A stretch of 61,153 nt of DNA, counting the filler, from Porpidia crustulata (taxonomy: Eukaryota), in assembly GCA_964255105.1 (NCBI GenBank). It is 5 parts of 5 records of this genome, joined end to end, with 100 filler letters (N's around TTAATTAATTAA, not from the genome) between each part and the next. Parts side by side here need not be neighbours in the genome. Positions count along the whole stretch, not along the records: positions 24,548 to 36,696 come from CAXUWE010000564.1; 4 more parts are not named here. One strand, given 5' to 3'. The number at the start of each line of letters is the position of its first letter. The first letter of the stretch is position 1. A program made the position numbers and the translations under genes. The notes below the pieces were generated by a model. It was given only the letters and a program-made list of their open reading frames with translations. It made no database searches and had not been told where the DNA came from. Positions 12,184 to 49,031 of the stretch are shown piece by piece.

Positions 12184-12283
12184 NNNNNNNNNNNNNNNNN
12201 NNNNNNNNNNNNNNNNNNNNNNNNNNNTTAATTAATTAANNNNNNNNNNNNNNNNNNNNNNNNNNNNNNNNNNNNNNNNNNNN
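12184..12283. other. Artificial contig linker N44-TTAATTAATTAA-N44
   Basis: Fixed 100-nt spacer with a core giving stops in all six frames; identical at four places. Confidence 0.98.
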
Positions 12284-24447: not shown

Positions 24448-24547
24448 NNNNNNNNNNNNNNNNNNNNNNNNNNNNNNNNNNNNNNNNNNNNTTAATTAAT
24501 TAANNNNNNNNNNNNNNNNNNNNNNNNNNNNNNNNNNNNNNNNNNNN
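24448..24547. other. Artificial contig linker
   Basis: N44-TTAATTAATTAA-N44. Confidence 0.98.
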
Positions 24548-24551
24548 GTAC

Positions 24552-25315
24552 CTTGGCGGCAAGAGCAGACGGTTCCTTAATGGTGCCGAATAGTTCGGTA
24601 GCCCTCTTCCGCTCGACATCTTTGACTTTCTGATAGTCGAGGAAGCGAACACCGGGACAGCGCCATATTATCCAGTGCCTATAATGCTATTCCCCCTCGC
24701 ACCCCCACGATTAGCCTCTTAAATCTCCCCTTAAACGCCCTCATCCCAGTCCAGAGGAAAAAAAAGCCCAGCGTACCTCCCGCCGCGTGACGGGGTTTTC
24801 CAACAGCGACAGATGCGTGAGCTTCGGAAACTTGCTCAGCGCGTCCAGGTCCGCTAGCTCGGCGAAATTGTTCTGCGTGAGGATCAGGGCCGTGAGGTTG
24901 GGTATCGAGGTGGCGAGCGAGGGCTGGATGCTGCTGACCCGGTTGCGGGCGAGGAGGAGGGTGTGGAGGCGCGGGGAGAGGGGGAAGTTGGAGAGGGCGC
25001 TGATGTCGTTGTCGGTGAAGTTGATGGCGTCTTGATCCTGGCTCACACCTCTGGAATCAGCCATCCATCTAGGAATCTTGATATCTTTTTGAGAGGGGGA
25101 GGGGGGTTTCTGAGAGACCTTTGCGACGCCGAGATTTTCGATGGTGGGGATTTTGTGGCCTGTGGTATTGCGATCATGATATCAATGGAGCTCATCCCAA
25201 TGTGTAGTATCTGTTCTTTTTCAGTTTGGTACGCACCTCTGAGATCCAGTTCGCGTTCTTTGAGGGGATTCAGATACGAAAGGGAATTTTGAATGAGTTC
25301 GGCTGTCAACCTCAT
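24552..25315 (-). CDS. LEA1: U2 snRNP protein A' (LRR), 3'-truncated; exons 25315-25237, 25159-25119, 25037-24777, 24686-24552
   Basis: MRLTAELIQNSLSYLNPLKERELDLRGHKIPTIENLG...DAINFTDNDI...NFPLSPRLHTLLLARNR...LLENPVTRREHYR...VRFLDYQKVK. Confidence 0.96.
25202..25227 (-). promoter_or_regulatory. Intronic element antisense to U2 snRNA (branch-recognition region through stem IIa) in LEA1 intron 1
   Basis: The plus strand reads GTGTAGTATCTGTTCTTTTTCAGTTT, matching the conserved U2 core GUGUAGUAUCUGUUCUU(U/A)UCAGUUU. The LEA1 pre-mRNA carries the complement. The match is direct; a regulatory function is inferred. Confidence 0.75.
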
Positions 25316-25317
25316 GG

Positions 25318-25343
25318 CTGCGATTGAGTGCAACCGGTCGCAG
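25318..25343 (-). promoter_or_regulatory. 5'-UTR hairpin with a U1A/U2B''-type loop (CUGCGA-CCGGUUGCACUCAA-UCGCAG), 2 nt before the LEA1 AUG
   Basis: Perfect 6-bp stem and 14-nt loop containing UUGCACUC. Confidence 0.55.
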
Positions 25344-25495
25344 AGGTATGTCCCGAGTGTTGTGGCTGTAATGTTCTAGTCCTTTTGAGGCTTTCGTATT
25401 TCAAAGAACTATCTTTCAAATTGGGCAATATCGAAGATGGAAAAAGTTTTGTGATAGCCGTTTCATAAAGATCCTCGAGCTACTCGGTAGATATT

Positions 25496-25516
25496 ACCCT
25501 AACCCTAGGTTAGGGT
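25496..25516. promoter_or_regulatory. Inverted telomere-like (CCCTAA/TTAGGG) quasi-palindrome upstream of LEA1
   Basis: ACCCTAACCCTAGGTTAGGGT, about 180 nt upstream of the ATG. Confidence 0.45.
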
Positions 25517-25906
25517 GGTCCGTTGAGGGTGAATAGCTATTTACATAAAACTATCATCATAAATCTGATATAATGAGCTTATCATCGAATTCTATTAGTC
25601 GAACGCACTGTCTGAGCATTCTTGAATGCGTGCCCGTATTTTCTTCTTGCTAATTTGATCTCATTCGAATTCGATATTTTGATGAGACTGAAGATGCAAC
25701 GGTAGGGCTGAGTCCACTGATAGCACCCCCTGTGAATGGGGTGGGCTTATTATGTTGTACTTTAAAGTTTTATAGCATAGCAGCTATGAAACAGAGGTTC
25801 GATAGCGATTCCTCTGTGCTTTGAAACCCTTTAGATAAACTACAGCTGCACCAGAGACCTAAGGCTCATCCAACCCCATCTCGTCCCAGATCAAGTACGA
25901 TGTCCA

Positions 25907-36696: not shown

Positions 36697-36796
36697 NNNN
36701 NNNNNNNNNNNNNNNNNNNNNNNNNNNNNNNNNNNNNNNNTTAATTAATTAANNNNNNNNNNNNNNNNNNNNNNNNNNNNNNNNNNNNNNNNNNNN
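36697..36796. other. Artificial contig linker
   Basis: N44-TTAATTAATTAA-N44. Confidence 0.98.
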
Positions 36797-48931: not shown

Positions 48932-49031
48932 NNNNNNNNNNNNNNNNNNNNNNNNNNNNNNNNNNNNNNNNNNNNTTAATTAATTAANNNNNNNNNNNNN
49001 NNNNNNNNNNNNNNNNNNNNNNNNNNNNNNN
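48932..49031. other. Artificial contig linker
   Basis: N44-TTAATTAATTAA-N44. Confidence 0.98.

Follow-up and report, generated by a model that had tools for sequence, protein, structure and literature searches.

The first intron of the LEA1 gene of the fungus Porpidia crustulata, which encodes the A' protein of the U2 small nuclear ribonucleoprotein (U2 snRNP), contains a long antisense copy of the functional core of the U2 small nuclear RNA (snRNA). The gene is located on the minus strand of a stretch of 61,153 nucleotides from this genome (assembly GCA_964255105.1; hereafter the window), within the piece derived from contig CAXUWE010000564.1. The complementarity is real and far beyond chance, and comparison with related sequences marks the element as a U2-pairing site that is old and under selection, located in the pre-mRNA for a U2 protein. 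U2 thus probably controls the splicing of a message for one of its own proteins. With a probability of about one half, it serves as a bulge-less decoy for U2 that gates LEA1 splicing, so that U2 snRNA would be the sensor and intron 1 the regulated intron. Among the open-access papers and bioRxiv preprints searched, no description of a U2 complement in an intron of LEA1/U2A' was found.

The host gene was assigned by means of its third exon, an LRR_9 segment (PF14580, E = 3.7e-26) with 408 homologues. The best of these are named U2 snRNP A' or U2 snRNP complex subunit, belong to species of Xylographa, a genus of the Lecanoromycetes, and share 84-85% identity with the exon. The LRR_9 assignment, the names of the best homologues and the lead of Xylographa together identify the gene as the U2A'/LEA1 orthologue of a lichen-forming fungus.

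Intron 1 of LEA1 contains a near-perfect complement of U2 nucleotides 27-55

A preliminary description of the window had recorded a long U2 complement in the 5' part of intron 1, with no nucleotide available as a bulged branch adenosine. As reference, the U2 sequence of locus L095 (RF00004, 183.5 bits) and the Rfam consensus were used, in which the GUAGUA box occupies nt 33-38 and stem IIa is formed by nt 47-52 with 61-66. Intron nt 10-36 (positions 25227-25201) read AAACTGAAAAAGAACAGATACTACACA. Within this stretch, U2 nt 31-47 find an exact complementary counterpart of 17 nt in intron nt 19-35, and U2 nt 49-55 one of 7 nt in intron nt 10-16, with one extra A between the two. The pairing can be extended to U2 nt 27, resulting in 27 Watson-Crick pairs and 1 wobble, interrupted by 1 mismatch and 2 gaps (intron 10-40 versus U2 27-55). 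On the U2 side, the element faces the GUAGUA box, the sequence that follows it on the 3' side and, in stem IIa, the 5' strand and the loop (nt 47-55). RNAduplex returned -43.7 kcal/mol for pairing with U2 nt 1-70, a value reached by 0 of 1000 dinucleotide shuffles (-23.1 +/- 3.9 kcal/mol, best -40.3), and the long, near-perfect complement to U2 27-55 was confirmed. The 15-mer GTGTAGTATCTGTTC occurs a single time in the window; the chance statistic computed for it allowed 3 mismatches and was uninformative. UACUACAC pairs gap-free with U2 31-38 and leaves no nucleotide over, and hence provides no bulged branch adenosine.

An Rfam scan identified no U2 gene in the window. U2 genes were fetched from public contigs with the 17-nt pattern, and 11 of 20 tested loci matched RF00004; the identity of these genes over nt 31-47 is imposed by the search pattern. 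The near-universality of nt 31-47 rests on the capitals of the Rfam consensus and on general knowledge. The U2 core pattern had 0 matches in viral contigs and 119 matching stretches in genome contigs, many of which were eukaryotic U2 in contaminated assemblies and none of which looked fungal. Two prokaryote assemblies contained only contaminant U2 genes, and in 14 control genomes no U2 was detected. Several prokaryotic metagenome-assembled genomes (L082-L093, L105-L109, L120-L122, L151 and others) were found to carry tandem arrays of eukaryotic U2 snRNA, some beside 5S rRNA or tRNA genes; these contigs are clearly misbinned DNA of the host or of other eukaryotes.

The element is conserved at one intron position and specific to it

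Exon 3 was aligned with 35 homologues (alignment A1), and relatives were sought in metagenome contigs, which yielded 209 loci, the best 80 of which were used. For 67 of the 80 loci, as for the window, the limits of intron 1 could be set by script, which gave 48 distinct introns. Of the 13 undelimited loci, four (L021, L028, L029, L078) carry the element, eight possess only 33-131 nt of upstream sequence and fall short of the site, and one (L068) is devoid of intron 1. Counted per locus, the site is covered in 72, and 67 of these contain a long element, four a remnant of 9-14 nt and one no intron, so that the position of intron 1 is occupied in 71 of the 72 related loci covering it. Between 21 and 31 Watson-Crick pairs with U2 are possible in 44 of the 48 distinct introns, and 8-13 in the remaining four (L059, L064, L065, L073).

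Carriers of the element were assigned to four classes, all by best hit among 120 listed proteins only, where the fused models P0093 and P0115 blur some placements. Lecanoromycetes are represented by Heterodermia, Acarospora and Cornicularia types, Leotiomycetes by L039 (85% identical to Rhexocercosporidium), and Eurotiomycetes by L035 (90%, Nannizzia gypsea), L043 and L049 (74%, Thermoascus) and L075 and L079 (75-79%, Aspergillus). Three further carriers (L058, L060, L062) are Pezizomycetes-like, with 67-72% identity to Geopyxis carbonaria. As the element occupies the same intron position in distant genera from four classes of Pezizomycotina, it does not represent a one-off insertion of a U2 fragment, and its presence in 67 of 72 loci with best-hit taxa in four classes shows the conservation in orthologous introns that the preliminary description had made a condition of its proposal. 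The missing bulged adenosine is equally stable: TACTAAC was found in 0 of the 48 distinct introns, no lineage has a version with a bulged A, and the earlier statement on its absence holds for 48 of 48.

Two loci stand out by their intron content. In locus L068 (L068:98-880), introns 1, 2 and 3 are missing while intron 4 is present, the encoded protein is more divergent, with an identity of 71% in exon 3, and the DNA runs uninterrupted across the spliced junction of intron 1; loss of the element along with its intron is thus possible. The contig L046:1-1003, of 1003 nt, begins 38 nt upstream of the ATG of a LEA1 orthologue, ends about 130 nt downstream of the stop codon and has intron 1, with the U2 complement, as its sole intron. 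It represents either a genome in which intron 1 alone has been kept or a transcript that retains intron 1.

Within the DNA scanned, the complement is specific to this intron. In the 320,900 bases of the 80 loci and the window, both strands included, 54 antisense-U2 words of at least 11 nt were found, 50 of them in LEA1 intron 1. The other four have only 11-12 nt and are located at L037 position 2342, where the word is part of the exon 4 coding sequence (HYRYY), at L028 position 1102, in the 3' region, in L017, and on the minus strand of the window. Likewise, the median duplex energy with U2 was -45.5 kcal/mol for intron 1 versus -22.9 kcal/mol for intron 2, which performed no better than shuffles. 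The concern that such complements might be common in unrelated introns was thereby answered, as none comparable occurs elsewhere in the fungal bases searched.

Other causes of conservation were considered. RNAalifold predicted 0 pairs for 33 of the 48 distinct introns (67-84 nt, near-duplicates removed), and the window intron with exon flanks of 10-14 nt (25150-25250) folds no better than shuffles (z = 0.16); internal RNA structure was therefore rejected as the cause of conservation, and the element is predicted by these folding models to be single-stranded and free to pair in trans. Rfam returned no match, either at the gathering threshold or at E up to 10, for the whole window or for 25100-25300; a fragment of 27 nt is too short to score. 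A U2 gene or a truncated U2 retropseudogene was rejected, given that no RF00004 match was obtained at E up to 10 and that the element is common to four classes at one position. Guide RNAs of the C/D type possess ordered C and D boxes, a guide directly upstream of D or D', and a terminal stem. An intronic C/D small nucleolar RNA (snoRNA) or small Cajal body-specific RNA (scaRNA) guide was rejected, since CUGA is part of the upstream side of the complement, the GAUGA-like word is unconserved, no terminal stem is predicted and no Rfam match was obtained. Finally, the idea that the AUUGAUAUC block mimics the loop of U2 stem-loop IV, the binding site of U2B''/U2A', was dropped, as AUUG and a few further letters are common to both only when two deletions are allowed and as no closing stem is predicted.

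Substitutions within the element follow the rules of pairing with U2

As U2 does not vary, classical covariation is invisible in this system, and the substitutions of the intron side were scored instead. Opposite a U of U2, A and G are tolerated, opposite a G, C and U are tolerated, and opposite an A or C every change breaks the pair. The scored region was U2 29-52 without position 48, which varies among eukaryotes, in all 48 introns. At the 15 sites opposite U2 U or G, 612 cells of the alignment were complementary, 60 carried wobble-compatible changes and 5 carried changes that break the pair. At the eight sites opposite U2 A or C, 351 cells were complementary, and 0 transitions and 1 transversion were observed. 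Transitions occurred at 13 of the 15 tolerant versus 0 of the 8 intolerant sites (Fisher p = 9e-5). Because cells are not independent events, changes were also counted on a tree built from exon sequences for 41 of the 48 introns (L031, L059, L063, L064, L065, L072 and L073 were left out, as the exon-3 pattern failed), with a minimum of 41 changes at tolerant sites versus 1 at intolerant sites. A reading of the opposite strand, with U to C and G to A changes, would not preserve pairing, which identifies the LEA1 pre-mRNA strand as the constrained molecule and requires a partner with the sequence of U2. Thus, with 60 wobble-compatible changes against 0 forbidden transitions, the pairing with U2 that had been proposed passed the substitution test. 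That changes are tolerated only where G.U pairing survives is, by comparative standards, unusually clean proof that the RNA pairs with a second RNA that does not vary.

The same pattern bears on the view that the conserved sequence has no function in U2 pairing at all and instead is left over from an inserted U2 fragment, binds a protein, is an intronic guide of the snoRNA/scaRNA type or belongs to the opposite strand. The intron does contain CUGA and, in the window, GAUGA-like words, as a guide RNA might. However, CUGA is located upstream and not downstream of the complement, the word resembling a C box is unconserved (GCGAGC in most introns), no terminal stem is predicted, and no Rfam match was obtained. 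Conservation across four classes, and substitutions of a kind allowed only for a pre-mRNA strand facing a U2-like partner, also at the level of the tree, argue further against such an origin, which we consider extremely unlikely.

At the position left out of the scoring, the intron base opposite U2 position 48 is A in 35 of 39 aligned introns, which predicts a U at this position in the U2 of these fungi. In budding-yeast U2, the region of position 48 is a run of four U.

Intron 1 combines the complement with unusual splice signals

Apart from the element, the remaining signals of intron 1 deviate from those of the neighboring intron. GTGCGT is the 5' splice site of 43 of the 48 distinct intron-1 sequences versus 1 of the 34 distinct intron-2 sequences, which mostly begin with GUAAGU or GUACGU, and GUGCGUAC forms a conserved block at the start of intron 1. 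CTRAY is the consensus of the canonical branch motif. It is present in 1 of 48 intron-1 versus 24 of 34 distinct intron-2 sequences, and the window intron 1 contains neither CTRAY nor TACTAAC and only TTGAT and ATGAT, so that the absence of a canonical branch point noted earlier holds. TTGAT is present in 41 of 48 introns, and T52, T53 and A55 are invariant in alignment A2. The A of UUGAU is located 21-50 nt (median 24) from the 3' splice site, and RUUGAU, the putative branch site, follows downstream of the element. As a branch site, RUUGAU would pair with U2 33-37 only via G.U wobbles around the bulged A. The base preceding UUGAU is A in 14 and G in 12 of 26 introns, both of which pair with U2 U37.

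The putative branch site is part of a conserved block, GAGCU-N3-RUUGAUAUC. GAGCT is present in 37 of 48 introns, and its distance to the branch-site block is 3 nt in 26 of 26 introns parsed by script. Wherever the local alignment extended that far (9-13 introns), AGCT lined up with U2 19-22, and in some lineages the complement continues through U2 19-28 with small bulges, so the GAGCU box may pair with U2 nt 19-22. Splice-site function by itself does not account for the degree to which GUGCGU and the GAGCU box are kept. In the four introns whose element has decayed (L059, L064, L065, L073), the GAGCU and UUGAUAUC blocks are missing as well, and this joint loss suggests that the parts work together. 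From these sequence features, intron 1 therefore appears as a combination of a very strong dead site and deliberately weak live signals.

Alternatively, the element might itself be a working branch region, with which U2 pairs productively, branching at a non-bulged or shifted nucleotide and using a downstream AG. The UACUAC core survives even in degenerate lineages, and many introns have AG dinucleotides 9-14 nt downstream of the element. However, splicing to one of these AGs would disrupt the reading frame of a conserved protein, and the annotated, conserved 3' splice site is located about 43 nt downstream, with RUUGAU well placed 21-50 nt before it. In addition, a bulged A is absent from 48 of 48 introns, and substrates lacking the branch A stall in the experiments described (PMC11482624). 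We therefore regard productive branching within the element as very unlikely.

Retention of intron 1 is predicted to be non-productive

If intron 1 were retained, 45 of the 48 distinct introns would supply an in-frame stop codon from within, and the remaining three, among them that of the window, would shift the frame. Here, the shifted frame, read through intron 2 as well, ends at 25043-25045, in line with the premature stop near 25043 that had been proposed. No other intron of the gene is as persistent: several loci have kept intron 1 but are devoid of introns 2, 3 or 4.

A further scenario is an action in trans, in which the excised intron or the unspliced RNA would serve as a sponge, chaperone or storage partner for U2 and alter the fold of its branchpoint-interacting stem-loop (BSL) and stem IIa, or its availability, rather than the output of LEA1. 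This would fit with the extent of the complement, which coincides exactly with the functional core of U2 and whose pairing would open stem IIa, and with the predicted single-stranded state of the element. It is nevertheless distinctly unlikely, since a low-copy pre-mRNA is hardly able to titrate an abundant snRNA and since the location in a gene for a U2 protein, the weak splice signals and the always non-productive retention would be left unexplained.

A bulge-less U2 decoy as proposed mechanism

The reading to which we assign roughly even odds, a bulge-less decoy that gates LEA1 splicing, would comprise the following steps. A single-stranded stretch of 24-31 nt in the 5' half of the intron would pair with U2 nt ~27-55, from the branch box into stem IIa. 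U2 snRNP, or a U2 core free of SF3, would form on the element a branch-like helix incapable of chemistry, and the complex would, by analogy with substrates lacking the branch A, stall before entry of the tri-snRNP. The decoy would thereby compete with the weak true branch site located about 16 nt downstream, and could do so effectively because the GUGCGU and RUUGAU signals are kept weak. The share of productively spliced transcripts would then depend on the amount or state of U2. Unspliced RNA, with its stop codon or frameshift, would yield no U2A', resulting in negative feedback on the U2 snRNP. Spliceosome assembly in the absence of Lea1 or Msl1 was described to be blocked before U2 addition (PMC2752994), and as both proteins are needed for U2 to join the pre-mRNA, such a loop would be homeostatic. 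That U2 physically binds the element, that binding represses rather than activates, and that a feedback loop is closed are parts of the mechanism that we infer. Surplus U2 as the signal and removal of the retained form by NMD, as proposed in the preliminary description, would be further, putative steps.

Published work on the early spliceosome bears on several of these steps. In the 17S U2 particle, the branch-recognition region is described to be located within the BSL and nt 47-52 within stem IIa, the branch helix to extend to about 15 nt on suitable substrates, and Prp5/DDX46 to block splicing when the branch A is not bulged (PMC11482624).

Several points weigh against the decoy. The element is dispensable in some lineages, given the loss of intron 1 in L068 and the short remnants in L059, L064, L065 and L073. 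The loci used were the 80 nearest to the query, which leaves the coverage of Sordariomycetes and Dothideomycetes uncertain. The reference U2 of L095 originates from a non-fungal eukaryote, a contaminant in a prokaryote assembly, so that position 48 and the nucleotides beyond 55 are unverified for these fungi. Since mature 17S U2 sequesters the regions in question, full pairing would need the opening of both the BSL and stem IIa. Repression that depends on the dose of U2 needs an extra assumption, because two exclusive sites for one ligand keep a constant occupancy ratio at equilibrium. Such an assumption could be kinetic first-come binding, in which the decoy is favored by being transcribed first, or a form of U2 that sees only the decoy, for example an SF3-free core with open BSL and stem IIa. 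Finally, the distance between UACUAC and the 5' splice site ranges from 19 to 47 nt, and due to this variation a blocking of U1 by crowding is not a conserved feature. The preliminary description's U2 snRNP-sensing decoy was partly supported, in that the evolutionary tests, namely conservation, specificity and substitution pattern, came out in its favor; its placement of U2 right beside the 5' splice site is not conserved.

The most direct competitor is a role of the element as a tether or enhancer, by which the complement recruits U2 to a weak intron and hands it over to RUUGAU about 16 nt downstream, so that more U2 would lead to more LEA1 splicing, or so that splicing would be protected when U2 is scarce. 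The pairing evidence fits equally well with this possibility. The spacing between the element and the branch site is fairly constant (median 16 nt), and the weak branch site and the element decay jointly in L059, L064, L065 and L073. In addition, the U11 snRNP-binding splicing enhancer (USSE) is described to act as an enhancer (PMC5473595), and both toehold formation and scanning of the pre-mRNA by U2 have been described (PMC11482624). However, the single 5' region of U2 cannot pair with both sites simultaneously, and U2 would not easily get out of a helix of 24-31 bp. For a housekeeping snRNP protein, a positive loop is also less expected than a negative one, and the selection against a bulged A (0 of 48 introns) fits a dead site better than a helper. 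We thus consider a tether rather unlikely.

Extending the decoy to its broadest form, the element would be an ancient riboregulator common to Pezizomycotina with U2 snRNA as its ligand, which is captured by a bulge-less antisense of nt ~19/27-55 through opening of the BSL and stem IIa, stalls a weak intron and thereby sets the output of U2A'. This wider proposal is put forward tentatively, at slightly below even chances.

Gene structure and public gene models

The coordinates of the gene and of the signals in intron 1 are summarized in Table 1. The N-terminus encoded by exon 1, MRLTAELIQNSLSYLNPLKERELDLR, agrees with the aligned homologues. LEA1 is cut at 24548, so that its last exon or exons and the C-terminus are outside the contig piece.

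Table 1. Features of LEA1 and of its first intron, given as positions in the window.
Feature	Position	Strand	Remarks
LEA1/U2A' exon 1	25237..25315	-	ATG at 25315; 26 codons + 1 nt
Intron 1	25160..25236	-	77 nt, GTGCGT...ACAG, phase 1, between R26 and G27
5' splice site GUGCGU	25231..25236	-	Unusual hexamer, almost unchanged across relatives
U2-complementary element	25197..25227 (core 25201-25227)	-	Intron nt 10-40, antisense to U2 nt 27-55
GAGCU box	25189..25193	-	Intron nt 44-48, 3 nt upstream of branch-site block
Putative weak branch site AUUGAUAUC	25178..25186	-	Candidate branch A = intron nt 55 = 25182, 22 nt from 3' splice site
Exon 2	25119..25159	-	GHKIPTIENLGVAK; matches homologue alignment
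Intron 2	25038..25118	-	Ordinary, canonical CTGAT branch site; internal control
Exon 3	24777..25037	-	87 codons, LRR_9
Intron 3	24687..24776	-	Read from sequence
Exon 4	24552..24686	-	Matches alignment; gene ends at contig-piece end

The window consists of five pieces of about 12.2 kb, joined by spacers at 12184-12283, 24448-24547, 36697-36796 and 48932-49031, each of which is composed of N44, TTAATTAATTAA and N44 (a six-frame stop linker). Pieces that follow one another in the window are not necessarily neighbors in the genome. Contigs of run X1 contain unspliced DNA identical to the window over 25053-25578 (0 differences); this agreement is not independent support, since X1 may be the source sample. 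The region 25484-25700, upstream of LEA1, is repeated in X1, where its depth is several-fold higher and where many contigs with loose ends and one joint to the opposite strand were observed. It holds a short palindrome of telomere-repeat-like units (CCCTAACCTAGGGTTAGGG) and may be a small dispersed repeat.

Public models of the gene were found to be faulty in several cases (P0081, P0006, P0002, P0004), and two proteins, from Pseudogymnoascus and Verticillium, have extra residues exactly at the position of intron 1. Several LEA1 models are short (~202 aa), and some are fused to a neighboring kinase gene (P0093, P0115). Gene predictors may have been misled by the odd splice signals of intron 1, and the mis-calling of this intron in public models calls for caution in gene prediction.

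Relation to known systems of spliceosome homeostasis

How the parts of the major spliceosome are kept in balance is largely an open question. If the decoy reading is true, LEA1 would provide a natural case, conserved to great depth, in which U2 appears to read the message of its own protein through its catalytic-core region. Homeostasis of the U2 snRNP could then be tested directly in fungi amenable to experiments, such as Aspergillus-like or Helotiales-like species. As a natural substrate, the element would also lend itself to studies on how the BSL and stem IIa open, and it could be used as a natural probe of the conformational state of U2, that is, of the SF3-free core versus the mature 17S particle.

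The USSE consists of tandem repeats resembling 5' splice sites, which are read by the 5' end of U11 and enhance an upstream 3' splice site. Like the element in LEA1, it is a conserved non-coding element in genes for proteins of its own snRNP, as described for U11-48K and U11/U12-65K (PMC5473595). According to the same account, it is read by that snRNP and gives rise to unproductive isoforms and negative feedback (PMC5473595), and a counterpart of this loop is what we propose for LEA1. In animals and plants, the USSE is a feature of the minor spliceosome, whereas the LEA1 element pertains to the major spliceosome of fungi. Furthermore, the latter is a single long complement of U2 nt 27-55 that has neither repeats nor a branch A and is predicted to result in retention of the intron. 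It thus shares with the USSE a conserved snRNA complement in a gene for a protein of the same snRNP but has no tandem-repeat architecture, and is an analogue of the USSE rather than a member of this group.

A second relation exists to branch-point decoys, defined as sequences that pair with U2 yet are inactive for splicing (PMC5727392, citing work on spliceostatin A). As in these decoys (PMC5727392), the LEA1 element is complementary to U2 and has no usable adenosine. The known decoys are located 5' of the functional branch point and are described as non-productive binding sites; the LEA1 element is located 5' of RUUGAU, its putative branch site. Complementarity to the GUAGUA box and its flanks was evident by sequence and by energy, and an adenosine able to bulge was absent. 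The decoys described there are short, branch-point-like human motifs that were studied with drugs or with the A deleted in reporters (PMC5727392), whereas the LEA1 element is natural, 24-31 nt in length, conserved across fungal classes and located in a gene for a U2 snRNP protein. The fate of U2 on such a helix would be expected to resemble that of stalled pre-A complexes without a bulged branch A, in which Prp5 is not released and the tri-snRNP cannot join (PMC11482624). The substrates described in that work are engineered yeast sequences (PMC11482624), which are not known to have a natural regulatory use, in contrast to the natural element in LEA1. The intron may hence offer a natural example of a stall due to a missing branch A, which has hitherto been studied only with engineered substrates.

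The U1A protein binds an element in the 3' untranslated region of its own message that mimics an snRNA. This autoregulation has in common with the loop proposed for LEA1 that the homeostasis of an snRNP component is achieved via its own pre-mRNA, and the cross-regulation of U1C and U1-70K belongs to the same group (PMC3798272). In the U1A and U1C cases, either a protein reads an RNA resembling an snRNA, or alternative splicing responds to snRNP assembly. As the LEA1 element is the complement of an snRNA, the likely reader is the snRNA itself. To our knowledge, the loops described for spliceosome components mostly consist of proteins acting on their own messages, and the sole case read by an snRNA is the USSE with U11, in the minor spliceosome. 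If true, the proposed regulation of LEA1 would represent the first homeostatic loop of the major spliceosome that operates by direct antisense pairing between an snRNA and a pre-mRNA.

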